Part shown: positions 1-14,206 of the stretch, piece by piece
Position numbering within the stretch: the stretch's first letter is position 1
Layout: every line of letters begins with the position of its first letter
Assembly: GCA_964600165.1 (NCBI GenBank)
Contig: CAZRIP010000005.1
Location: 48 to 64,047 of the forward strand
Reading direction: 5' to 3'
DNA from: an uncultured Elusimicrobia bacterium
GTDB lineage: Bacteria > Elusimicrobiota > Elusimicrobia > UBA1565 > UBA9628
Length of the DNA stretch: 64,000 nucleotides
Program-made: the position numbers and the translations under genes
Notes under the pieces: generated by a model
Databases searched by the model: none
What the model saw: the letters and a program-made list of their open reading frames with translations, nothing else
What the model was told of the DNA's origin: nothing

Positions 1-1
1 C

Positions 2-619
2 GCCGGCGCGTTCCACGATCCGGCCGCCGTCGTCTGCGACGCGGCGCTTCTTTCGCGCCTTCCGCCCGCCGAGCGCGCGGCGGGCTTGGCCGAGGCGCTC
101 AAGATCGGCCTCGTCTTCGAGCCCGCGCTCTGGCGCGCGATCAGCGGGAACTGGCTTTCGCTCGCGGCCGGGCGCGCGCCGGAACTGCTCGAGAACGTCG
201 TGCGGCGCACGGCGGTTTGGAAGCTCAAGGTCGTCGCGCGCGATCCTTTAGAAAAAGCCGGAGCGCGCGAGCTGCTCAATTTCGGGCACACGATCGGGCA
301 CGCGTTCGAGTCGGCGGCGGGGTACGGCCGGCTGCGCCACGGCGAGGCCGTCGTCTGGGGCCTTCGCGCCGCGGTCCGGCTGTCGACGGTCCTCGCGGGG
401 CTTCCTTTAAAGGAAGCCGACGCCGTCGAGGGCTTCCTCGAGAAGATCTCCGTGCCGCTGCCGCGGCTGTCCGCCGACCGCGTGCTGGCGGCGGCGGCCA
501 AGGACAAGAAGGCGCGCGCCGGCGTCCTGCGCTTCGTGCTGCTGCGCGCGTTGGGAAAGCCGGTCACGCGGCCCGTCGACGCGCGGCTCGTCCGCAAGGT
601 CGTGGAGGACCTGCTATGA
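2..619 (+). CDS. aroB: 3-dehydroquinate synthase, C-terminal portion (5' end lies outside window)
   Basis: Translation contains the AroB metal-binding region [11 protein letters not shown] and the GEAVVWG motif. Reading frame is open to the window edge. The stop overlaps the next start (ATGA). Confidence 0.8.
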
Positions 620-1038
620 AGATCCTGGTGCTGCACGGTCCGAACTTGAACCTGCTCGGCGAGCGCGAGCCCGAGGTCTACGGGACGACGACGCTCGCCC
701 AGCTCAACGCGCGGCTGCGCGCCCACGCGCGGCGGAAGAAGATCGCGCTTAAGATCTTCCAATCGAACTCGGAAGGGCGCCTGATCGACTTGATCCACGC
801 CCACCGCAAGTGGGCCGACGGGTTGGTGTTCAACCCCTGCGCCTACACGCACTACTCCTACGCGCTGCGCGACGCCGTCGCCGGCGCGCAGCTCCCGACG
901 ATCGAGGTCCATCTCTCGAACATCAAAAAACGCGAGCCGTTCCGCAGGATCTCCGTGATCGCGCCGGTCTGCTTGAGGCAGATCTCCGGCAAGGGCGTCC
1001 GCGGCTACCTCGAGGCGATCGACCGTCTCAGCGCTTAG
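616..1038 (+). CDS. aroQ: type II 3-dehydroquinate dehydratase
   Basis: 140 aa beginning [23 protein letters not shown] and containing the HLSN and HxR motifs typical of AroQ. Translationally coupled to aroB. Confidence 0.85.
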
Positions 1039-1130
1039 GTCACTCGGCGGGCGCCTGGGCCTTGAGGTCTCTCAATGGTCCGGGGCTTTTACGCCCGCGG
1101 GCTGGCGCGGCGAGAGGACGGACTGCGGCG

Positions 1131-1159
1131 TTGACAAAAGCGGACTCTCCGGGAATAAT
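1131..1159 (+). promoter_or_regulatory. sigma70-like promoter: TTGACA, 17-bp spacer, AATAAT, ending 6 nt before the moxR ATG (leaderless or near-leaderless transcript)
   Basis: Hexamers read directly from the sequence: TTGACA at 1131-1136 and AATAAT at 1154-1159. The ATG is at 1166. Confidence 0.4.
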
Positions 1160-1165
1160 GGGGGG

Positions 1166-2122
1166 ATGAAAGACTCCGCGGTGGCCGGGCGCGCCGGCGA
1201 GAAAATCGCGGCGCTGACCTCGAGCATCGGCTCGGTGTTCGTCAGCAAGCCCGAGGTCGTGCAGCTGACGGCGGCGACGCTCGTCGCGCGGGGCCATCTT
1301 CTCATCGAGGACGTCCCGGGCATCGGCAAGACCCTGCTCGGCGTGGCGCTCGCCCGCGCGATCGACGCCTCCTTTAGGCGCATCCAATTCACCAACGACC
1401 TGCTTCCATCCGACATCCTCGGGCTGTCGGTCTTCAACCAGCGCGAGACGCAGTTCGAGTTCAAGCCGGGGCCGATCTTCTCGCACGTGATCCTCGCCGA
1501 CGAGATCAACCGCTCGACGCCGAAGACCCAGTCCGCGCTGCTCGAGGCCATGAACGACGGGCAGGTGACGATCGACGGCAAGACGCACGTCCTGCCCTCG
1601 CCCTTCTTGGTGATCGCGACGCAAAACCCGGTCGAGTATCACGGCACCTTCCCGCTGCCGGAGGCGCAGCTCGACCGTTTCCTCATGCGCGTGCAGATCG
1701 GCTATCCCTCGGCCGAGGACGCCAAGAAGATCTTGCGCGAGAAGGACCTCGCCGGCCAGGTCAAGGCGATGAAGCCGGCCTTGACCAAGGACGAGGTGCA
1801 AAGCCTGCAGGACTCAGCCGAGGAGGTCGGCGTGGAGGAAGACATCCTCGATTACATCGTGCGGATCGCCGAGGCCACGCGCGAGGACAAGCGCTTCAAG
1901 CTCGGGCTCTCGCCGCGCGGCGCCCTGGCGCTGTGCCGCGCGGCCAAGGCCTACGCGCTCGTCGCCGGGCGCGGCTATTGCGTGCCCGATGACGTCAAGG
2001 CGGTGCTGGTGCCCGTGGCCGCGCACCGCGTCGTTCTCGATAGTTCTTTATACGGCGTCGCGCGCATCGCTGAATCCGAGGAGGCCGTCTCCTCGGTGCT
2101 GCGCGGCGTGCGCGCGCCTTAA
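1166..2122 (+). CDS. moxR: MoxR-family AAA+ ATPase
   Basis: Walker A GIGKT, then ADEINRSTPKTQSALLEAM and VIATQNP motifs, characteristic of MoxR/RavA ATPases. Confidence 0.9.
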   Translation: MKDSAVAGRAGEKIAALTSSIGSVFVSKPEVVQLTAATLVARGHLLIEDVPGIGKTLLGVALARAIDASFRRIQFTNDLLPSDILGLSVFNQRETQFEFKPGPIFSHVILADEINRSTPKTQSALLEAMNDGQVTIDGKTHVLPSPFLVIATQNPVEYHGTFPLPEAQLDRFLMRVQIGYPSAEDAKKILREKDLAGQVKAMKPALTKDEVQSLQDSAEEVGVEEDILDYIVRIAEATREDKRFKLGLSPRGALALCRAAKAYALVAGRGYCVPDDVKAVLVPVAAHRVVLDSSLYGVARIAESEEAVSSVLRGVRAP

Positions 2123-2125
2123 GCC

Positions 2126-5038
2126 GTGCGTCCGACCCGGCTCGGCGCGGGGGCGGCGGCGATGGCCTTCCTGACGCTTCTCGCGGCGGCCTCGACGGGC
2201 AACAACCTGCTCTATCTCCTCTACGGCGCGACGACGGCGGCGCTCTTGATCTCGGCCGTCGCGGGGCGCTGGAACTTGCGCGGGCTGCGCGTCTCCCTCG
2301 ACGCCGCTCAGGCCTTTCGCGGGCGCGATTTTCCGCTGAGCGTGCGCGTCGAGAACCCGCGGCGCTTTTCCGCGCGCGGCGTGGTCGTCAGCTGGGGCGA
2401 GCGGCGCGCGCGGCTGGGCGCGCTGCCCGGCGGAGGACGCGCCGCGGGGCGGCTCTCGTGCGCGGCGCCGCATCGCGGCCGCAACCGCCTCGAAGGCCTC
2501 GCGCTCGAGAGCGTCTTCCCCTTCGGGTTGCTGCGGCACCGGGCGCCGATCCGAGACGCCGTCGTCGTCGCGCTGCCGCAGACGTCGCCGGCCCGCTCCG
2601 AGGCCGAGCTTTCGGCCGACGCCGAGCCGTCCGGCCGCCCCGGCGTGCGGCGCGGGCGCGGCGAGGAGCTTTTCGGCGTGCGCGCCTACGACCCCGGCGA
2701 CGAGGCGCGGGTCATCAATTGGAAGCTCTCGGCGCGCGCGGGAAAGCTGCTCGTCAACGAGTACTGCGAGGCCGGACCCGCGCACGTGACGGTGCGCGCC
2801 GCGGGCGGGCGCGGAGCGGCGGCGGAGAAGGCGATCGAGGCCGCGGCTACGGCCTGCCGTTTCTACAGCGACGGCGGCGCGGCCGTCGAGCTCGTGACGC
2901 CGCAGGAGCGCATCGGCCCGGCGCGCGGGCTGCGCCATCTCGACCGCATGCTCCAGGCCCTCGCGCTGCTCGGGGAAGGGGCGAGCGAGAGGCCGGCGCC
3001 GGCCCCGGCCGAGCCGCCGGAGCCCGAGGCCGAGGACGGCGCGCTGCGCGCGCTGACTTTCGCGGGCCTCGTCTTTTCCTTCGCGGCGACCTTCTTGATC
3101 GACGAGATCAGCCCGCGGGTCTTGTGGACGCTCGCGCCCGTGCTGCCGCTCGGCTGGTGGGTGCAGCGGCGGGGCCGCTCGCCGCTGCCCGAGTGGCTGT
3201 GGCGGCTGATGTCCGTTTTCGCGCTGCTTTACCTCGTCACGTTCGACTGGCGCGTCTCGGGCGTGACCGTCGCCAACGCTCACCTGCTTCTCTATCTTCT
3301 GGCCAATCGCGCGCTGCATCCGCTTTCGCGCAAGGACTTGCCGCAGACGTTTTTGATCGAGTTCCTCGCGTTCTTCCTCGCGTCGGGCTTGACGATCAGC
3401 CTGTGGTATTTCGCGTTCTTCCTGGTCTACGTCGCCTTCGCCTCTTGGTGGCTGCTCGCGGCGGCGCGGCCCGGCGGCGCGGCGCGCGAAAAAGCGGGCG
3501 TCGTCGCAGTCCTCGCGGCGGCGGCGCTGCCTTTGACCGCGCTCGTTTTCGTCGCCACGCCGCGCGTCGAGGGCCTGCGCCGCATCAACCCCTTCCTCGC
3601 CGCGGGCATCGACAAGCTCTCGGTCGCGCCGTCCCAGTTCACCGGCTACACCGAGAACGTGACCCTGGGCTACTACGGCTTGCTCAAGAAATCGTCGGCG
3701 CGCGTCATGCAGCTGCGGCCCTTGGCCGCCGCGGACGCGCAGCGCCCAGCGAGCGTCTACGTCCGAGGCGCCGCTTATGACGTCTTCGCCGGCAACCGCT
3801 GGGGCCGCGCGCCGGGGGATTTCGCGTTCCGCATGCGGGGCCTGCGCTATCCGAGCCGGGGCGGCAGCGCCTGGGCCGTGCCGCGGGGCCGGGAGCTGTA
3901 CTTGCCGGCGCGACTCTCGGGCCGAAGCGAGGCTTACGACGTCATGATCTATCCGATGGGCTTGAACGTCGTGTTCTCCGTCGGGACGCCCTGGAAGATC
4001 GAGACCGAGCAGCCCGTGTCGCTCGACCACAACGGCAGCCTGCGCTTCGCCCAGCCTTACGGCGCGCGCGGCGCGCGCTACAAGATCCACGGCACCGACG
4101 CGGGCGGCGGGCTCGCTCTCGACTTATCGCCGGCGCAGCGCGCGGCGGCGCTCAGCCCCTTGAGCGCCGATCCGCGCGTGGCGCGGCTCGCGGCCAAAGC
4201 GACCGCGGGCGCGCGCGCCGAGCTCGACAAGATCGCGGCCGTCGAGATCTTTCTGCGGCGCGACTATCGTTATTCTCTTTTCGGCGACGAGTCCGGCCGC
4301 ACCTTGGAGGATTTTCTTTTCAAGACGCGCAGGGGCAACTGCGAGTTTTTCGCGACGGCGGGCGTCGCGCTCTTGCGGGCGTCCGGCGTCCCGTCGCGCC
4401 TGGCGACGGGCTTTCTCGCCTCCGATTGGAACGAGTACGGCCGCTTCTACGACGTCAGGCAGAGCGAGGCGCACGCCTGGGCCGAGGCGTTCGTGCCCGG
4501 TCGCGGCTGGGTGCTCGTCGATCCGACGCCGCCGCAGGGCGCGTTCTCGGCGGCCTTCGACGATCTCGGCCACAAGCTCTCGCGCTGGGCGGACGCGATG
4601 CAGGTGGAATGGTACCGCCACGTGATCGGCTACGACCAATACGTCCAAGGCAACACGTTCCGCCGGCTGAGCTTGGCGCTCTCGCCCAAGGCGCTCGCGC
4701 GCGGCCTGGGCTTTGGCGCGTGGGCGCTGGGCTTGGCCGCGCTCGGCGTCGTTTTGTGGGCCGCGGCGGGCGGCGCGGCCCGCCGGTCCAAGAAAAGAGC
4801 GCCGAGCCTTTGGGATCGCGCCGAGACGCTGCTCGCCAAGGCCGGTCTCGAGCGCTCGCCGTGGCTGACCGCGCGGGAGTTCTCGCGCTCGCTCGCGGCG
4901 CGCGGCGAGCCCGCGTTCACCGCGCTTCCGCTGCTCTCCGAGCTTCACTACGCCCAGGTCTACGCGCGGCGCGCGCTTTCGGCCGAAGAACGCGAGACGG
5001 CGGAAAGAATCCTCATGGAGCTCTCGCGCCGCCGATGA
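2126..5038 (+). CDS. fused DUF58 (vWA-like, MoxR partner) plus multi-pass membrane region plus transglutaminase-like cysteine protease domain
   Basis: The N-terminal DUF58 signature reads YDPGDEARVINWKLSARAGKLLVNEY. The central region holds hydrophobic helices. The C-terminal part has a transglutaminase core, GNCEFFATAG...HAWAEAF...VDPT, carrying the Cys, His and Asp residues. The start is GTG at 2126, with an alternative ATG at 2162. Confidence 0.8.
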   Translation: MRPTRLGAGAAAMAFLTLLAAASTGNNLLYLLYGATTAALLISAVAGRWNLRGLRVSLDAAQAFRGRDFPLSVRVENPRRFSARGVVVSWGERRARLGALPGGGRAAGRLSCAAPHRGRNRLEGLALESVFPFGLLRHRAPIRDAVVVALPQTSPARSEAELSADAEPSGRPGVRRGRGEELFGVRAYDPGDEARVINWKLSARAGKLLVNEYCEAGPAHVTVRAAGGRGAAAEKAIEAAATACRFYSDGGAAVELVTPQERIGPARGLRHLDRMLQALALLGEGASERPAPAPAEPPEPEAEDGALRALTFAGLVFSFAATFLIDEISPRVLWTLAPVLPLGWWVQRRGRSPLPEWLWRLMSVFALLYLVTFDWRVSGVTVANAHLLLYLLANRALHPLSRKDLPQTFLIEFLAFFLASGLTISLWYFAFFLVYVAFASWWLLAAARPGGAAREKAGVVAVLAAAALPLTALVFVATPRVEGLRRINPFLAAGIDKLSVAPSQFTGYTENVTLGYYGLLKKSSARVMQLRPLAAADAQRPASVYVRGAAYDVFAGNRWGRAPGDFAFRMRGLRYPSRGGSAWAVPRGRELYLPARLSGRSEAYDVMIYPMGLNVVFSVGTPWKIETEQPVSLDHNGSLRFAQPYGARGARYKIHGTDAGGGLALDLSPAQRAAALSPLSADPRVARLAAKATAGARAELDKIAAVEIFLRRDYRYSLFGDESGRTLEDFLFKTRRGNCEFFATAGVALLRASGVPSRLATGFLASDWNEYGRFYDVRQSEAHAWAEAFVPGRGWVLVDPTPPQGAFSAAFDDLGHKLSRWADAMQVEWYRHVIGYDQYVQGNTFRRLSLALSPKALARGLGFGAWALGLAALGVVLWAAAGGAARRSKKRAPSLWDRAETLLAKAGLERSPWLTAREFSRSLAARGEPAFTALPLLSELHYAQVYARRALSAEERETAERILMELSRRR

Positions 5039-6558
5039 AAAGAAGACTCGAGTCGGGAGCCCTCGTCTTCTGCGCCGTCTTCGCGGCGGCGCTGCTCGTC
5101 TACGGGCCGCTCTTCTTCGCGGCGGTCTTCGGAGACGACCCGCGCCTGCCGCATGACGTCCTGCGGGGCGTTCTCTCGACGCGGTATTTCGCCTTGACCG
5201 GGGAGGCGACCTATCAGCCGCTGGTCACGCTCCTCAACCACCTCACTCGCGGAGAGCCCGTCTTCTCCCGTCTGATTAGTATCCTCCTCCACGCGGTGAA
5301 CGCGCTGCTGCTGTGGGCGCTGGCGCGCCGCGCCGGCGTCGCTTCCAAAACCGCGCTCGCGGCGGCCGTGGCCTTCGCGGTCTTTCCGACGAACACGGAG
5401 ACCCTGGCCTTCTCGAGCTACAAGGGCCACGTGCTCGCCTTCGGCGCGGCCGAGGCCGCGGTCTTGTGCTGGGCGGCGATGCTCGAGTCCGCGGTTCCCG
5501 CGCCGTGGCTCGCCGGCGCGGCGGCGGCGCTGCTCTTCGGGCTTTTATGCAAAGAGTCGGCGCTCGTCGCGCTGCCGCTGTGCGCGGCGTGGTCGGTTTG
5601 CTTCGCGCGCGCGAAGCCGCGGAGACGTCAGTGGACGGGCGCGGCCGTCCTGGCGCTCGTCGCGTGGGCCTACCTCGTCTGGCGCTTCGGCGTCCTCGAG
5701 CCGGCCGACTTCGTCCGGCGCCCGATGCCCGGGCCGCTCGCCGTTCTCGGCTGGTATTTCAAGACGCTGCTTCTTCCCTATCCGCTTTGCCGCGAGCGCG
5801 TGTGGACGAGCGACACCGTCTGGGACGTGCTCGGGGCCGCGTATTTCGCGCTGCTTTGGGCCGCGCGCCGCAAGCCGCGCGCGCTTTTCGCCTCGCTTTG
5901 GATCGGCGCCTGCTGTCTTCCTTTCCTGAGGCTCGTGCCGTTCGCCGGCGACAACGCCGTGGCCGACCGCTTCGTCTACGGCGCCTCGGCGGGCTTCGCG
6001 CTGCTGGCGTCGCTGGCGCTGTCGCAGGGCCGCGGGCCGCTCGTTTTATACGGCCTGATCGCGCTGTGGGCGGGGGAGGGCGCGCGGCGCGACGTGCTCT
6101 ATACCTCGGCGCGCGCGTTCTGCGAGCAGACGGTCGCCTGCGCGCCGGATCATCCGCGCGCGCATGCGGCGCTCGCGCGGGAGATGATCGTCAGCGGAGA
6201 GTTCGAGCCGGGCAAGACCGAGGCGCTCAAGGCCCTCTCGTTGGACCCGAGGTCTCCCGGCGCTTACAATCTGCTGGGCGTATCCGAGTTCAATCTCGGC
6301 GACGCCGACGGAGCGCAGGACGCGCTCGACCACGCGCTCGTCTTCGATCCCGGCTCGGCCGAGGCGCGCAACAACATCGCCAACGTGCTGCTCGCGCGCG
6401 GGTTCGAGGACGAGGCGCTCGAAGACTACGAGATGGCCGCGCAGCTGCGGCCGGATTGGGACGCGCCGCGGCAGAAGGCGGAGGAATTACGCGCGAAGAT
6501 CGCGTCGGAGCCGAAGACCAGGACGCCGAGGCGCCGCCGCAGGCCTCGTCATCGCTGA
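5035..6558 (+). CDS. TPR-repeat-containing PMT/TMTC-like GT-C membrane glycosyltransferase (paralog 1)
   Basis: The ATG overlaps the upstream stop (ATGA). The N-terminal two thirds form a multi-pass membrane region with a loop YQPLVTLLNHLTRGE and a helix LLHAVNALLLWALARR. The C-terminus has TPR repeats. It is paralogous to 17210-18751. Confidence 0.7.
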   Translation: MKRRLESGALVFCAVFAAALLVYGPLFFAAVFGDDPRLPHDVLRGVLSTRYFALTGEATYQPLVTLLNHLTRGEPVFSRLISILLHAVNALLLWALARRAGVASKTALAAAVAFAVFPTNTETLAFSSYKGHVLAFGAAEAAVLCWAAMLESAVPAPWLAGAAAALLFGLLCKESALVALPLCAAWSVCFARAKPRRRQWTGAAVLALVAWAYLVWRFGVLEPADFVRRPMPGPLAVLGWYFKTLLLPYPLCRERVWTSDTVWDVLGAAYFALLWAARRKPRALFASLWIGACCLPFLRLVPFAGDNAVADRFVYGASAGFALLASLALSQGRGPLVLYGLIALWAGEGARRDVLYTSARAFCEQTVACAPDHPRAHAALAREMIVSGEFEPGKTEALKALSLDPRSPGAYNLLGVSEFNLGDADGAQDALDHALVFDPGSAEARNNIANVLLARGFEDEALEDYEMAAQLRPDWDAPRQKAEELRAKIASEPKTRTPRRRRRPRHR

Positions 6559-6644
6559 AGCGAACGTGTCTAGGATGGGGGGCGGACTTCGCGTGCCTGC
6601 AAGTAGAATGGCAAAGCTTCTAATCCCCTGTTACAATTCGTGGC

Positions 6645-7307
6645 ATGAGCTCAATTCCTGAGGAAATCGAAAGGATCGGCAAACAGTTGGTGGCGTGTGT
6701 AGACTGTTGCCTTGGCATCTGCCAAAAGCAAGCAGAAGGAATTTTGCCTCGGGGTCTTTTTCTTGAACGACCAAACAGCCCCGGTCGAGGATGCGTCGCA
6801 GTGGGGCTGAACCCCGGAATTTCATCAATCGAAGAAAGGGATTATTTCCGCAAGAATGGAACCTCCTACGATATGGTCAAAGCCCACCGTGAATCTATTA
6901 ATGGCATACCGTATTTTAAACGGACACGCCGCGTCATCGACCAACTGGGACTCAGTGGACCGATTCTTTGGTCCAACCTAGCAAAGTGTGAAAATTTAAA
7001 AGAGCGAAAACGGTTCACACCACCACTTCAGACACTGAGGCACTGTGCCAACAAGTTTCTGCTTCGGGAGTTGAAAATAGTTCCAAGAGATTGGGCCATT
7101 CTCGGGTTGGGCCGCGAAGCATTTCGCACACTTGCCTACATGCTCCCGGATCATGCCGTTCTGGGAATTCCGCATCCAACCGGAGCTAACCCAGAATACA
7201 GCAAGATGTTCGAGAATGATGCACTTCGCTCGGATTTGCGGAAGCGGGCGGAAAAAGCATGGGATAAATCAGAAGTAGCATGGTTGGGAACGGCCGGGAA
7301 CGGTTGA
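6645..7307 (+). CDS. uracil-DNA glycosylase superfamily protein (family-4-like scaffold with a MUG-like motif A), carried on a low-GC island
   Basis: Motif A reads GLNPG and motif B reads GIPHPTGANP. The family-4-like segment LWSNLAKCEN...PPLQTLRHC and an N-terminal Cys cluster CVDCCLGIC are present. The local GC is about 47% against about 70% in the flanks. Confidence 0.55.
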   Translation: MSSIPEEIERIGKQLVACVDCCLGICQKQAEGILPRGLFLERPNSPGRGCVAVGLNPGISSIEERDYFRKNGTSYDMVKAHRESINGIPYFKRTRRVIDQLGLSGPILWSNLAKCENLKERKRFTPPLQTLRHCANKFLLRELKIVPRDWAILGLGREAFRTLAYMLPDHAVLGIPHPTGANPEYSKMFENDALRSDLRKRAEKAWDKSEVAWLGTAGNG

Positions 7308-7345
7308 TGGTGGGAAAACTCCTGTTGTAGCGCGCCAGGAAATCG

Positions 7346-8128
7346 TCAATAGCTTTCCACGCAGTAAGATTTGCTCGCATCTGTCGCGCCACAGTAAATG
7401 AGATCTATCGCAAATTTTCCTTCCAAATAATAAAGATCTAGTAATGCCCTCTGGTCGTTTTGGCCCCGAAAAAGAACCGCGCCGCGTGGTCCAAGACAAT
7501 CGGTAACTTTCAGATAAGGACTAGGCTTGTCGAACTCCTCGGTGACTGCATAAGTTGAAGATAAATACTGTTGAGCATCATCCAATGCGTTACGGAAGTC
7601 CTGACAGTTGTCCGTAAACTCCTGAAGGTGGACGTAAAGAAGCTTATCTTTCACGGCGTCATCGACTGTTCGGATGGGGAAAAACGCGCTGAGTTCAGAG
7701 GGATGAAATCGCCCATATGCGAGCTTTTTGGATATTGGCCAGGATAAAAAGCCCGTTTGCGACGTTGCGGGCTTATCGCCAAGTGCTTTTCCGGTTTCGT
7801 TGCGCGACATTCCCATGGTCAGGTGAAATGGGAATTCTAATTGGATTTTTTCTGTCGTAGAAGTGGTCTTGTCTTCATGGGAACTTTTCCCGCAGCTTCC
7901 GACGATAAGAATGAGCCCCAGAATGGAAGCTAAGAGTGTGAGAGGAAGAACAATAAGCATCCCAACACCCAGTTTAACGCCGTCAAGAACGGTGTTTCCG
8001 GGCCTGTTTGATTGTGCGGGTTCGTTGGTACCGTGGATGTCGCGCTTGCAGAACCGACAAACGATCGCTTCGCGCCTTATCGTTTCAGCGCAGAACGGAC
8101 ATTTCTTGTTGCCGGTCGGAGCGTCCAC
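7346..8128 (-). CDS. hypothetical membrane protein with N-terminal zinc ribbon (CPFC...CRFC), one TM helix and a Cys-containing extracytoplasmic domain, on a low-GC island
   Basis: The ORF is 260 aa. It contains the CxxC-X13-CxxC motif and a hydrophobic segment GVGMLIVLPLTLLASILGLILIVG. The local GC is low. Confidence 0.5.
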   Translation of the reverse strand: MDAPTGNKKCPFCAETIRREAIVCRFCKRDIHGTNEPAQSNRPGNTVLDGVKLGVGMLIVLPLTLLASILGLILIVGSCGKSSHEDKTTSTTEKIQLEFPFHLTMGMSRNETGKALGDKPATSQTGFLSWPISKKLAYGRFHPSELSAFFPIRTVDDAVKDKLLYVHLQEFTDNCQDFRNALDDAQQYLSSTYAVTEEFDKPSPYLKVTDCLGPRGAVLFRGQNDQRALLDLYYLEGKFAIDLIYCGATDASKSYCVESY

Positions 8129-8174
8129 TTAAATTTGATCCCTATCCGGAACTAATTTTTAAGAAATAGTCCGA

Positions 8175-9833
8175 TTACATCTTCTCTGGCGCGCTGACGC
8201 CTAAGAGGCCGAGGCCTTCGGCGATCACGTCGCGCACGCCGGCGCAGAGGAGCAGGCGCGCTCTCGATTGCTCCGGCTCGGCGGCGTCGACGACGCGGCA
8301 CTTCTCGTAGAAGGGGTGATACAAGCCCGCCAGCTCAAGGAGATAATTCGCGAGCGGGTGCGGGGCCAGGTCGCGCTCGCAGATCTTCAAGACCTCGGGA
8401 AACCACGCGACTTTGACGAGCAGCGCGCGCTCTTCGGGCTTCTCGAGCAGGCGGGCGTTCGGTCCGGGCAATTGATCGCCTTCCGCCAAGATGCCCGCCT
8501 TCGCGGCCTCGCGGAAGATCGAGCAGATGCGCGCGTGGACGTATTGGCAGTAATAGACCGGATTCTCGCTCGACTGCTTCTTGGCTAGCTCGAGGTCGAA
8601 GTTCAAGTGGGAGTCCGGCGTGCGCATCGCGAAGAAGAAGCGGCAGGCGTCCTTGCCGACTTCGGAAACGACCTCGGATAACCGGACAAATTCCCCCGCG
8701 CGCTTGCTCATCTTGACCGCTTCCTGCCCGCGGTAGAGATGGATCAGCTGGTGGACGATGGCGTGGAAGTTCTCGGGCGGAAAGCCGAGCGCGGCGATCG
8801 CCGCCTTCATGCGCGGGACGTAGCCGTGATGGTCGGCGCCGAGGATGTCGATGAGCTCGGTATAACCACGGTCGAACTTGTCCTTGTGATAGGCGATGTC
8901 CGGAAGGAAATAGGTCGGCTTGCCGTCGGATTTGACGAGCACGCGGTCCTTGTCGTCCTCGGAGCCCTCGGCCGACGCCGTGCCGAGCCACACGGCCCCG
9001 TCCTTCTCGTAGACCATGCCGCGGCTCTTCAAGAAGTCGAGCGTCTTCTGCACGGCGCCGCTGGCGTGGAGCTCGGATTCGAGGTACCAGCGGTCGAAAT
9101 GGGTGTCGAAGGAGCGCATGTCGGATTTGTGGGAAGCGAGCAGCGTCTCCATCGCGTACTTGCCCCACGCTTGAGCGTCCCACGCGGAAGCCTCGGCGGG
9201 AGCCTGCGCGGCGACTTCGAATAAATACTCGCCCTGGTAGCCCTTCTCGGGCACCTGGGCGTCGGGCTTGCCGCGGGCCTGGTCGTAGCGGGCTTTGACC
9301 GATTCGCCGAGCAGCACGACGCGCCCGCCGGCGTCGTTGACGTAATATTCCGTCGCCACCTTGCGGCCCAGGCGCCGCAAGATGCGCGCGAGCGAGTCGC
9401 CGAGCGTCGCGCCGCGCCCGGACGCCAGGTGAAGCGGGCCGGTCGGATTGGCCGAGACGAACTCGATCAAGATCGCGCGCTTCGGGCCGTGCGGATCGGC
9501 GCCGTAAGAGGAGCGGCTCAAAGTGAGCGCCTTGAGGTTCGCCGACAGGGCCGAGGCGCGCAGCTTCAGATTCACGAAGCCGGGGGGCGCGGCGTTGGCC
9601 TCGGCGATCTCGGGGATCTGCGCGAAGGACGCGGCGAGCGCCTTGGCGACCTCCATCGGGTTCTTCTTCGACGCCTTGGCGAGCGCGAGCGGCCAGGGGA
9701 CGCTGACCTCCGCGCCCACGTGGGCGGGCGGCGAGGCGAGCGGGGCGAGGCTTTCCGGCGGCGCGACGCCGGCCTCCTTGGCCCAGGCGGCGGTCTTTTC
9801 GACGAGCGTCTTGCGCAGCGAGGCGAGGACCAT
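8175..9833 (-). CDS. argS: arginine--tRNA ligase
   Basis: 552 aa containing the class I HIGH-like region ANPTGPLHLASGRG, the KMSKR motif and a DALR anticodon-binding C-terminus. Confidence 0.95.
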   Translation of the reverse strand: MVLASLRKTLVEKTAAWAKEAGVAPPESLAPLASPPAHVGAEVSVPWPLALAKASKKNPMEVAKALAASFAQIPEIAEANAAPPGFVNLKLRASALSANLKALTLSRSSYGADPHGPKRAILIEFVSANPTGPLHLASGRGATLGDSLARILRRLGRKVATEYYVNDAGGRVVLLGESVKARYDQARGKPDAQVPEKGYQGEYLFEVAAQAPAEASAWDAQAWGKYAMETLLASHKSDMRSFDTHFDRWYLESELHASGAVQKTLDFLKSRGMVYEKDGAVWLGTASAEGSEDDKDRVLVKSDGKPTYFLPDIAYHKDKFDRGYTELIDILGADHHGYVPRMKAAIAALGFPPENFHAIVHQLIHLYRGQEAVKMSKRAGEFVRLSEVVSEVGKDACRFFFAMRTPDSHLNFDLELAKKQSSENPVYYCQYVHARICSIFREAAKAGILAEGDQLPGPNARLLEKPEERALLVKVAWFPEVLKICERDLAPHPLANYLLELAGLYHPFYEKCRVVDAAEPEQSRARLLLCAGVRDVIAEGLGLLGVSAPEKM

Positions 9834-9834
9834 G

Positions 9835-10917
9835 CTACGGCTGCGGAGGCTGCGCGCCCATGGTCACGAGCTGCTTGACCGTCCCGGGATCGTGGGCGAT
9901 CGCGCAGGCCTCGTTGAGGTCGACGAGGTTTTGCTTGATGAGGAAAGCGAGGTACTGGTCCATCGAGATCATCCCGAACTTGCTGCCGGCCTCGATGGCG
10001 GAGTAAAGCAGATGGGTCTTGCCGTCGCGGATGATGCTGCCGATGGCGGACGTCATGCGCATGAACTCCCGCGCGCAGACGCGGCCTTTGCCGTCCTTGC
10101 GCGGCAGCAAGGTCTGGCAGATGACGGCCTGCAGCACGGTCGAGACCTGGATGCGCACTTGCTGCTGCTGGTGCGCGGGGAAGACGTCGATGATGCGGTC
10201 GATGGTCGACGGCGCGTCCTGGGTGTGCAGCGTGCCGAAGCAGAGGTGCCCGGTCTCCGCGGCGGTGATGGCGAGCTGGATCGTCTCCAGGTCGCGCATC
10301 TCGCCGATCAAGATCACGTCGGGGTCTTGGCGCAAGCTGTGCTTGAGGGCCTCGGCGAAGGACTTGGTCTGCTGGCCGACCTCTCTCTGCAGAATGATCG
10401 AGTTTTTGTCTTCATACACGAATTCGATCGGGTCCTCGACGGTCAGGACGTGCTTCTGGTACTTCTGGTTGATGAGCTCGATGAGGCAGGCGAGCGTCGT
10501 CGACTTGCCGGAGCCCGTCGGGCCGGTCACGAGCACGAGCCCGCGCGGCAGATCGACCAAGTTGCGCATCGCCGGCATCAGGCCCAGCTCGTCCGGCGTC
10601 GGGATCCGCGACGAGATCGTGCGCAGCACGGCGGCCACGCCGAGCTTCTGCATGAACACGTTCACGCGAAAGCGCGAGACGCCGGAGAGCGCGATCGAGC
10701 AATCGAGCTCCCAGCGGTCCTCGAAGCGGGCGCGCTGGTCCTCGGTGAGGATCGAGTAGATGAGGTTCTTGCACTCATCGGCGGCGAGCTTCGTCGTGCC
10801 GGGGATCGGCTGGATGGCGCCGTTCAAGCGCACCATCGGCGGCTTGCCGATGACCAGATGAAGGTCCGACGCGCCCATTTGGGCGGTCGACTTCAGGATT
10901 TCAACGAGATCGGGCAT
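9835..10917 (-). CDS. pilT: type IV pilus twitching-motility (retraction) ATPase PilT
   Basis: Walker A GPTGSGKST, the Asp box, Walker B ILIGEMRD and the His box TLHT, with the typical PilT length and N-terminus. Confidence 0.9.
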   Translation of the reverse strand: MPDLVEILKSTAQMGASDLHLVIGKPPMVRLNGAIQPIPGTTKLAADECKNLIYSILTEDQRARFEDRWELDCSIALSGVSRFRVNVFMQKLGVAAVLRTISSRIPTPDELGLMPAMRNLVDLPRGLVLVTGPTGSGKSTTLACLIELINQKYQKHVLTVEDPIEFVYEDKNSIILQREVGQQTKSFAEALKHSLRQDPDVILIGEMRDLETIQLAITAAETGHLCFGTLHTQDAPSTIDRIIDVFPAHQQQQVRIQVSTVLQAVICQTLLPRKDGKGRVCAREFMRMTSAIGSIIRDGKTHLLYSAIEAGSKFGMISMDQYLAFLIKQNLVDLNEACAIAHDPGTVKQLVTMGAQPPQP

Positions 10918-12165: not shown

Positions 12166-13251
<1,086 letters not shown>

Positions 13252-13264
13252 GCGTGCGTGTCTC

Positions 13265-14206
13265 CTAGAAGCAGTCGTCCGCGAGAATGACCGTCACGTC
13301 GACCAGCCGCTTCTCGTCCGGCCGGCTGACCTCTTCGGCGTCCCGGCAGCCGAGCATACGCTTGACCGTCGAGGCGTTCTCGAAGGCGCCGGAGCGGTCG
13401 TAGATCACCGTCTTGTCCTGCCGGCTCGGCGCGTTCGACGACGCCATGACGTCGGCGCCGCCTGATCTTAGAATTTTTGTGGCCTCGAGCGCGATACCGT
13501 GGCGCCCCGTCGCGTTGAGGACCTCGACCGTGAGGCGCTCGGGCTTGGCCGGGGGCGCCTCCGTGGCGAGGCGGCCGAGGAACGCCCGCCGCGCGCCGTC
13601 GTCCTCAGGCAGCCAGGCGGGACGCAGCCCCGCGCGGCCCAGGCGGTGGAGCTCCACCGCGGCGACGAGCCGCTCGGCGCGGCCGATATCGGCGCGCAGC
13701 CCTTTCGTCGAGAAAGCCAGGCGCCATGGCAGCCTCCGCGTCCACGCCGCGCCCTGCAGGGCCGGGTCGGGCTCGTCGGACGGCGCGGCCTGGACGTACA
13801 CGAACCGGCCGGCGCCGCCGTCGGCGTCGAGGCCGAGCAGGGGCCGGAGGAGCTCGCGCGCGGCGTCGGCCTCGTCTTTCGCGGCGCCGGCCGGATCGGC
13901 GTCGTTGGCCAGCGAGTCCTCGCGCGCCGCCGAAAGCGGGCGGCCGTCGGTCATTTTCGTCGAGTCGGGGATATACACGAGATCGGCCGCGCGCTTGGCG
14001 GGGTGAAAGAGCGCGAGGTAGAGGCGCGGAGGCTCGGGCGCGGCCTCGAAAGCGATGAGCGTCGCCCACGGCTTGCCCGCGCGCACGCAGGCCGCCGCCG
14101 TCGAGCGGCTCTCGAGCCAGGCCGCTAGCGCGACGACCGCGAAGACGGCGAGCGTCAGCGCGCGCTCCACCCTCACGCTCTTCGCGCTTATCGGAGAGAT
14201 TTCCAT
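13265..14206 (-). CDS. membrane-anchored protein with a LytR_C-like C-terminal domain
   Basis: Start assigned at MEISPISAK by frame arithmetic. One N-terminal TM helix. The C-terminus LTVEVLNATGRHGIALEATKILRSGGADV...KTVIYD resembles the LytR C-terminal domain. The longer track ORF overlaps nadD in another frame and was trimmed. Confidence 0.55.
   Translation of the reverse strand: MEISPISAKSVRVERALTLAVFAVVALAAWLESRSTAAACVRAGKPWATLIAFEAAPEPPRLYLALFHPAKRAADLVYIPDSTKMTDGRPLSAAREDSLANDADPAGAAKDEADAARELLRPLLGLDADGGAGRFVYVQAAPSDEPDPALQGAAWTRRLPWRLAFSTKGLRADIGRAERLVAAVELHRLGRAGLRPAWLPEDDGARRAFLGRLATEAPPAKPERLTVEVLNATGRHGIALEATKILRSGGADVMASSNAPSRQDKTVIYDRSGAFENASTVKRMLGCRDAEEVSRPDEKRLVDVTVILADDCF

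Follow-up and report, generated by a model that had tools for sequence, protein, structure and literature searches.

A contig of an uncultured Elusimicrobia bacterium (GTDB lineage Bacteria; Elusimicrobiota; Elusimicrobia; UBA1565; UBA9628) carries, between a gene for a TPR-repeat protein and argS, a short block of DNA whose base composition differs sharply from that of its surroundings. The stretch analysed, called the window below, comprises 64,000 nucleotides (positions 48 to 64,047 of contig CAZRIP010000005.1, GenBank assembly GCA_964600165.1), and the block, or island, lies at positions 6560-8174 of it. The question raised by this locus is where the island came from and what its two genes do, one of which (gene 1) belongs to the uracil-DNA glycosylase (UDG) superfamily and the other (gene 2) encodes a zinc-ribbon membrane protein. 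We show here that it is a foreign block of ~1.6 kb with a donor-like composition, sited between the convergent TPR gene (+) and argS (-). In the account that we favour, gene 1 would be an anti-phage DNA glycosylase of the type represented by the Brig proteins and gene 2 an independent passenger; to this account as a whole we give a probability of roughly 50%.

The GC content of the island is 49.3%, compared to 70.5% in the left flank (1-6558) and 66.4% in the right flank (8175-64000). Sliding windows of 1615 bp taken outside the island have a mean GC content of 66.8%, with a standard deviation of 2.7% and a minimum of 60.4%, which places the island about 6.5 standard deviations under them. All 500-bp windows with less than 58% GC are located inside the island and nowhere else in the 64 kb. 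Both borders are abrupt, as in 60-bp windows the switch occurs within ~30-60 bp of the stop codon of the upstream plus-strand gene (6556-6558) and of that of argS (8175-8177). The island is filled by two convergent open reading frames (ORFs), gene 1 at 6645-7307 (+, 220 aa, 50.2% GC) and gene 2 at 7346-8128 (-, 260 aa, 48.8% GC). The GC content at third codon positions (GC3) is 0.49 for gene 1 and 0.51 for gene 2, whereas the 34 host-like ORFs of the window range from 0.72 to 0.95 with a mean of 0.87. A preliminary description of this DNA, made from its sequence alone, had estimated the island at ~47% GC and had attributed an atypical codon usage to its two convergent genes, and the low GC content and the atypical codon usage are both confirmed by the windowed GC and GC3 values.

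Such a segment need not be a recent arrival. It could also be an assembly chimera of the metagenome bin, or an old locus held at low GC by selection, and this reading finds some ground in the fact that the source is a metagenome-assembled genome (MAG) and that the borders carry no mobility gene or repeat. Eight contigs of the same population, each assembled from a different ENA or Logan sample, match the window at 99.95-100% DNA identity, and all eight encode the identical glycosylase protein. Four of them (L001, L003, L004 and L007) cross both island junctions, and an assembly or binning chimera is therefore very unlikely. An old locus kept at low GC is difficult to reconcile with a GC3 of about 0.5 in both genes, since third positions are mostly free of protein-level constraint and hence point to a foreign origin. 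It also conflicts with the situation in related genomes, where the segment is missing throughout and where, in several cases, the genes on either side abut or overlap. Taken together, we consider a chimeric or ancient origin to be highly improbable.

These related genomes were examined at 47 loci, 26 from species-genome Elusimicrobia and 21 from metagenomes, with ArgS proteins 58-81% identical to that of the window, by tblastn with the window proteins. The nearest ArgS relatives are Elusimicrobia MAGs, the best reaching 78% identity in the species-genome collection and 77-81% in the metagenome collection. Neither the UDG-like gene nor the zinc-ribbon gene was found at any of the 47 loci, among which the rsfS-pilT-argS neighbourhood is retained. 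At six of them (L009, L012, L017, L023, L034 and L106) the homologue of a transglutaminase-like gene, located at 2126-5038 in the window, converges on argS without an island. At L034 the TPR gene also converges on argS, and its ORF overlaps the argS 3' end (9595-9644). The convergent genes are only 19-28 bp apart at L012 (3290-3318) and L106 (2577-2596), 790 bp of high-GC sequence separate them at L009 (3454-4240), and a different, unrelated ORF of 318 aa with a GC content of 0.51-0.60 occupies the junction at L017 (identical to L114; 9654-11500). The convergent junction of argS is thus a variable, insertion-tolerant spot, as relatives have either abutting or overlapping genes or other inserts there, and the 1.6-kb block is specific to the lineage of the window.

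Horizontal acquisition of the island is well supported, because its composition is foreign, its junctions are real and it is absent from relatives that have kept the convergence on argS. The preliminary description had proposed such an acquisition and had named the same two genes in syntenic position, with similarly low GC, in relatives as the observation that would speak for an ancient locus; the opposite was found, neither gene being present in any of the 47 relatives. The term 'recent' is based on a composition not adapted to the host and on absence at genus or family distance. A sister strain with an empty site was sought and not found, the highest ArgS identity being 78% among genomes and 81% among metagenomes, the latter on a partial contig.

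What the island carries is best approached through gene 1. Its match to the Pfam UDG model reaches 25.2 bits, barely over the cut-off of 24.3, and the fold and motifs agree with the UDG-superfamily assignment already made in the preliminary description. A word-indexed search of 5.8 billion proteins yielded 107 clusters of relatives, the best non-self one being 57% identical. Nearly all of these matches are unnamed, and one cluster holds a protein named 'uracil-DNA glycosylase family protein' by NCBI. Gene 1 has no match in PADLOC (PADLOC-DB 2.0), NCBIfam or PHROGs, and tblastn found none in 50,697 phage records and 72,556 plasmid records. In the BFVD viral structure library, the only matches were weak ones to UDG domains of phages. 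A cluster of the family formed at 90% identity (P0075/P0263) has members labelled 'candidate division WOR-3 bacterium' and 'Euryarchaeota archaeon', which reflects either a very recent cross-domain transfer or mis-binning.

The key residues of gene 1 are four cysteines (Cys18, Cys22, Cys115 and Cys134), motif A (G54-L-N56-P-G58), Asn111 and motif B (P176-H177-P-T-G180). Their conservation was counted in an alignment of 101 full-length members of the family. The four cysteines are kept in 98-101 members, with the spacing Cx3C...Cx18C. Motif A reads GLNPG or GINPG (Gly54 in 100, Asn56 in 100, Pro57 in 101 and Gly58 in 95 members), Glu64 is present in 98, and positions 67/68 hold an aromatic pair. 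Trp109, Lys114, Cys115, Arg132, Gly174, Pro176, His177 and Thr179 occur in all 101 sequences and Thr130 in 100. In a profile search of the sequences in the PDB, the segment W-t-E/N-L-v-K-C...C aligned with I-T-N-I-V-K-C...C of the Thermus thermophilus family-4 enzyme 1ui0. By this alignment Cys115 and Cys134 correspond to the KC...C segment of 1ui0, and residue 111 to the base-reading Asn. Asn82 of the Sulfolobus tokodaii family-4 UDG, at the equivalent position, has been described as the base reader (PMC11078745).

The closest folds are those of UDG families 4 and 5, with comparison scores of 11.6 for Thermotoga maritima 1l9g (family 4) and 10.8 for T. thermophilus 2d3y (family 5), followed by UdgX (10.4), BdiUng (10.1), SMUG1 (family 3; 8.2) and MUG (family 2; 6.2). 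Foldseek agrees, having retrieved 1ui0 at an E-value of 7e-6 with a TM-score of ~0.5. No Brig structure was among the PDB matches. Gene 1 has the alpha/beta UDG fold with motifs A (G-x-x-P-G/Y, following beta-1) and B (H/N-P-S/T) lining the base pocket that define the superfamily. Given the cysteine pattern and the fold similarity, the protein probably binds a [4Fe-4S] cluster with the four cysteines as ligands, two of them N-terminal and two in the KC...C segment.

Within the superfamily, gene 1 was not assigned to any named family. Motif A is GE(A/G)PG in family 4 and GLAPG in family 5. Assignment to family 4 (UdgA) was rejected, as this family has a Glu in motif A whereas 100 of the 101 members of the gene 1 family have Asn, and no NCBIfam family-4 model matches. 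Family 2 (MUG/TDG; GINPG, motif B without His, no Fe-S cluster) and family 3 (SMUG1; GMNPG, HPSPRN as motif B, no Fe-S cluster) were also tried and rejected. Compared with the Fe-S enzymes of families 4 (UdgA) and 5 (UdgB), such as TM0511 (1l9g/1vk2), 1ui0 and 2d3y, the residue that positions the catalytic water is Asn in gene 1 instead of Glu or Ala, the sequence identity is 17-21% and the TM-score only ~0.5. The motif A Asn is shared with SMUG1 and MUG/TDG, and the motif B His with SMUG1. The gene 1 clade therefore combines the fold and the four-cysteine pattern of families 4/5 with a motif A that has Asn, like that of MUG, SMUG1 and Brig1, and a motif B (HPTG) whose His is invariant. To our knowledge, none of the six classical families nor UdgX unites an Fe-S scaffold with an Asn motif A and a His motif B, and a literature search turned up no report of Fe-S UDGs with an Asn-type motif A.

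Since all residues needed for catalysis are conserved, we infer that the gene 1 protein is an active monofunctional DNA glycosylase. The target base would be flipped into the pocket, where Asn56 would position the attacking water and His177 would stabilise the leaving base, while Tyr67/Phe68 would stack on the flipped base and residue 111 would read its Watson-Crick face. This last residue is not uniform in the family: of the 101 aligned members, 54 have Asn, 37 Glu and 10 Asp. Asn111 characterises essentially the whole subclade nearest the window protein, and Glu or Asp the more distant members. In canonical UDGs, the Asn at this position recognises uracil, and the N204D mutant of human UNG gains cytosine excision. 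In Brig1, Glu147 occupies the same position and is required for the excision of glucosyl-hydroxymethylcytosine (PMC11078745). By analogy with these three cases, residue 111 may be a specificity switch, with Asn111 in the subclade of the window directing the enzyme to a uracil- or thymine-type base and Glu/Asp111 in the other subclade to a cytosine-type base.

The genomic surroundings of the family were read in eleven independent homologue contexts. In one (L095), the glycosylase gene follows a large N6/N4 methyltransferase gene and Abi_C and precedes a serine recombinase gene with DUF2924; in L094 an HNH gene and a Hypoth_Ymh gene come after it. L092 and L093 have DDE transposases, DUF6308, a serine recombinase and a D5_N primase in the vicinity, and HicAB and BrnT toxin-antitoxin genes are found in L096 and L097. 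L102 contains a tyrosine integrase, rve and Mrr/NA-iREase1, and L103 contains Mrr, HNH, FRG, an RHS toxin and an integrase. In L105 the glycosylase gene lies directly after a PIN/antitoxin pair (VapBC). The sole match of gene 1 in IMG/VR, L100 (IMGVR_UViG_2892966740_000007), is a prophage-like contig on which the homologue (7998-8708) occupies, like a prophage moron, a GC trough (0.43 versus ~0.58), with the gene for a Big_13 protein on one side and that for a GH108/PG_binding_3 lysin on the other. The surroundings are of the housekeeping type in L098, where the homologue follows ftsY, and in L089, with nitrate-assimilation genes, and housekeeping or uninformative in L104.

Toxin-antitoxin, Abi, restriction or recombinase genes are thus present in ~7 of the 11 contexts. 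In all eleven, the GC content of the homologue is below that of its surroundings, by 2-13 points and by ~15 in L100, so that a local dip in GC, each time in another host, surrounds every family member that was examined. A conserved neighbour was sought across the 11 contexts and none was found. The only similarity between neighbours of different contexts is a weak HNH-HNH match (L094 5492-6157 versus L103 5706-6257; 27% identity over 80 aa); in these two unrelated contexts the HNH nuclease gene is less than 2 kb away from the glycosylase gene. Defence genes, whose co-occurrence the preliminary description had suggested looking for, are often found near the homologues, but none lies beside the island in the window.

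The preliminary description had called the product of gene 2 a zinc-ribbon membrane protein, and this label proved correct, as the N-terminus contains a CPFC...CRFC ribbon (residues ~8-34; weak Pfam DZR_2 match) followed by a single transmembrane helix (residues ~47-76). The single-sequence AF2 model is confident for the ribbon and helix only (mean pLDDT 40.9). When 1.84 billion representative proteins were searched exhaustively with HMMER, 1358 matches were obtained, nearly all of them to residues 4-92 only, and no relative of the full-length protein. Ribbon and helix thus form a widespread N-terminal anchor module that is fused to many unrelated C-terminal parts; the ribbon also occurs in five PHROG families without an assigned function. 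In PADLOC-DB 2.0, gene 2 had only a chance-level match to LmuB (E 0.044). For the C-terminal domain (170 aa), which contains a conserved pair of cysteines, only one relative was found, the remote P0241, which is 24% identical over 169 residues at a whole-library E-value of 1.4e-7, with the two cysteines aligned. P0241 begins with a classical signal peptide, and the C-terminal domain of gene 2 is for this reason most likely located outside the cytoplasm, anchored by the ribbon and helix module.

One of the same-population contigs, L003 (ENA ERZ27245396), has a C-to-A change at window position 8086 (L003 3458) that turns codon 15 of gene 2 from GAA to TAA; gene 2 is then called as a product of 204 aa (P0268), and the glycosylase gene, which does not differ among the eight contigs, is unchanged. 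This stop hints that gene 2 is dispensable, and reflects either decay of the gene or a sequencing error. It also bears on whether the two island genes might form one system, for example a DNA-sensing glycosylase with a membrane effector or anchor, transferred together. The genes are adjacent and share a foreign composition, so they probably arrived as one block. A common function is nevertheless improbable in our opinion. The genes are convergent, hence not in an operon; none of the 11 other contexts has a gene 2 homologue or any other conserved gene within 4 kb of the glycosylase gene; the glycosylase family has more than 100 members while full-length gene 2 stands without relatives among 1.84 billion representative proteins; and one population variant has a stop at codon 15 of gene 2 and an unchanged gene 1. 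Because the genes are convergent and no relative of gene 2 is found near other glycosylase genes, gene 2 is best seen as an independent, co-transferred passenger, a near-orphan external domain on a zinc-ribbon/transmembrane anchor.

Each island gene has the same orientation as the host gene upstream of it, gene 1 starting 86 bp past the TPR gene and gene 2 46 bp past argS. The left spacer (6559-6644), in which GC drops from ~0.68 to ~0.5, contains a sigma-70-like site with an extended -10 element (ATGGCA-18-TG-TACAAT, 6608-6637, +) that ends 7 nt before the ATG of gene 1. This promoter-like site is a consensus match only, two such sites having been found where 1.2 were expected. No Shine-Dalgarno sequence is evident before this ATG, and a leaderless or near-leaderless mRNA is possible. 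The other two spacers are the 38 bp between the convergent stop codons (7308-7345), which have no convincing terminator hairpin, and the AT-rich 46 bp of the right junction (8129-8174), after which GC rises again at the argS stop codon. In none of the three was a fold better than that of shuffled sequence detected (z 0.19 for 8129-8174; -0.88 and -0.07 for 7308-7345), and a terminator-like site was found only within the coding sequence of gene 2 (7914-7931). Transcription of each island gene by read-through from the host operon is plausible, because the gene orientation matches that of the host genes and the spacers have no detectable terminators; gene 1 might in addition use its own promoter-like site. 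Insertions would be tolerated at this spot since no promoter would be disrupted there.

The way in which the block entered is less apparent. The 64-kb window has no tRNA gene, and no Rfam family (E up to 1) matches in 6000-8700. With 7-nt seeds, positions 6300-8500 were searched for repeats at the borders, for terminal inverted repeats and for duplications of the target; the matches were short and at chance level only, the longest inverted pair (19 nt, 84% identity) lying inside the GC-rich flanking genes. Neither of the two ORFs is a recombinase, and no integrase or transposase gene was found. The absence of integrase, tRNA and direct repeats reported in the preliminary description is thus borne out. 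An integrative genomic island or a transposon was considered and rejected, as there is neither integrase, tRNA and attachment-site repeats nor target-site duplication and terminal inverted repeats. The entry route left no sequence trace and was probably illegitimate recombination or recombination through the flanks.

With regard to the flanking genes, the one on the left (5035-6558, +; 507 aa, 70.6% GC, GC3 0.89), whose stop is the left edge of the island, encodes a polytopic membrane protein with C-terminal TPR repeats. The preliminary description had called it a core glycosyltransferase gene. Pfam supports only the TPR repeats, so that the enzymatic label is unverified, and L034 is the only relative with a homologue at this position (37% identity), which does not fit a core gene. 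Its product ends in an Arg-rich tail (…PRRRRRPRHR). On the right, argS (8175-9833, -; 552 aa, GC3 0.89; Pfam Arg_tRNA_synt_N, tRNA-synt_1d and DALR_1) is unbroken up to its conserved C-terminus (…GVSAPEKM). The window contains three pilT-like paralogues (9835-10917, 12292-13245 and 34630-35378), and the copy adjacent to argS is 77% and 73% identical in DNA to the other two. At 2250-3150 and 13500-14100, local GC peaks of 0.75-0.80 stand out from the window mean of 0.66, with long spurious ORFs on several frames.

The role of gene 1 is the point on which the interpretations diverge. The patchy distribution of the family, the GC troughs, the lack of a fixed partner and the frequent defence or mobile neighbours, circumstantial as they are, together make it most likely, by comparison with Brig1, Brig2 and Brig3, that gene 1 is a single-gene, horizontally traded anti-phage effector. 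Its product would excise a modified base from invading DNA and thereby generate abasic sites that block replication. A serious rival is that the same acquired islet brought in an accessory genome-maintenance enzyme, an Fe-S UDG acting on uracil, hydroxymethyluracil or other deaminated or oxidised bases, with no role in immunity. The closest folds are indeed those of repair enzymes of UDG families 4 and 5, UdgX and SMUG1, the subclade of the window has Asn at the base-recognition position like canonical uracil glycosylases, and the one name given by NCBI is that of a uracil-DNA glycosylase family protein. Housekeeping genes surround some homologues, and no defence gene adjoins the island. A repair function accounts less well for a gene that is absent from all 47 relatives, for a family limited to 107 clusters among 5.8 billion proteins, and for the GC trough and the toxin-antitoxin, Abi, restriction or recombinase genes of so many contexts. 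In addition, Glu or Asp at position 111 in nearly half of the family would, by analogy with Brig1 Glu147 and UNG N204D, predict a cytosine-type target and thus an activity dangerous to unmodified host DNA. We regard a repair role as possible, though on the whole unlikely.

Several points nevertheless weigh against an anti-phage role. No member of the gene 1 family has a known activity, substrate or phage phenotype. PADLOC, NCBIfam and PHROGs do not recognise gene 1, nothing else near the island in the window is defence-related or mobile, and three of the ~eleven contexts (L089, L098 and L104) are plain housekeeping or uninformative ones. That toxin-antitoxin or recombinase genes are nearby may mean no more than that the family belongs to the accessory genome, and Asn111 on a scaffold like that of family 4 is also compatible with an ordinary enzyme repairing uracil or hydroxymethyluracil. 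Binding of an Fe-S cluster is deduced from the cysteine pattern and fold similarity, and expression by read-through only from the direction of the genes and from the fact that no terminators were detected. Membership of gene 1 in the Brig1 family itself, a PSI-BLAST family whose tested members share ~50% identity, was rejected, since hhalign gave a probability of 2.8% with 13 aligned columns (motif A) and BLASTP an E-value of 0.18, the Brig1 sequence having been taken from the PDF text of the paper's supplement and possibly holding small errors. The more specific proposal that the gene 1 family is a seventh-type branch of the UDG superfamily, with an Fe-S scaffold and an Asn motif, acting as a single-gene anti-phage effector with a one-residue target switch at position 111 (Asn for hypermodified bases derived from uracil or thymine, Glu or Asp for those derived from cytosine), is put forward as tentative.

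The island itself is small and, as horizontally acquired DNA lodged where two genes converge, ordinary, and shows mainly that the junction at argS is insertion-tolerant in this Elusimicrobia clade. The interest lies in the cargo, which belongs to a compact family of roughly 100 UDG-fold proteins, as yet uncharacterised, in which the residues that look catalytic are fully conserved, an Fe-S cluster is probable and residue 111 divides the members cleanly into those with Asn and those with Glu or Asp. As Brig1-3 have recently been shown to act against phages with modified DNA, the family is a cheap and well-defined candidate for testing. If gene 1 is a defence gene, it would provide bacterial immunity and the toolbox for mapping modified bases with a new glycosylase lineage, possibly with new base specificities, and would widen the reach of the Brig-type strategy to another line of enzymes and to phyla that have been little studied, Elusimicrobia among them.

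Among known systems, the island resembles the small atypical islets ('morons') found between convergent genes in its sharp GC drop, a GC3 unadapted to the host, absence from relatives, insertion without promoter disruption and accessory- or defence-type cargo. It differs from them in having two genes only and no integrase, tRNA, direct repeats or transposase, for which reason its insertion mechanism is not classifiable. For gene 1, the comparison of choice is with Brig1, Brig2 and Brig3, which are single-gene anti-phage glycosylases of the UDG superfamily (PMC11078745; 10.1101/2025.10.29.685425; 10.64898/2026.02.25.707755). Brig1 has one Cys where the gene 1 family has four invariant ones, and the Brig3 paper mentions no Fe-S cluster (10.64898/2026.02.25.707755), Brig2 and Brig3 having been compared by description only. 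Brig1 stands alone in defence islands, where its neighbours are toxin-antitoxin, BREX and transposase genes; the structure that it matches best is that of a family-4 UDG, and it has Glu147 where canonical UDGs have Asn (PMC11078745). Brig2 homologues favour A/T-rich, recently acquired regions, and 41% of them have a mobile element or a defence system no more than 20 kb away (10.1101/2025.10.29.685425). Gene 1 shares with Brig1 an identical motif A (GLNPG) and a family-4 UDG as the closest fold, and the position of Glu147 is that of Glu/Asp/Asn111 in its family. Like Brig1-3, its relatives are stand-alone UDG-fold genes that are patchily distributed and occur in AT-rich regions of recent acquisition, close to mobile or defence genes, and by this analogy the gene 1 clade appears to behave in genomes like the recently discovered anti-phage glycosylases.

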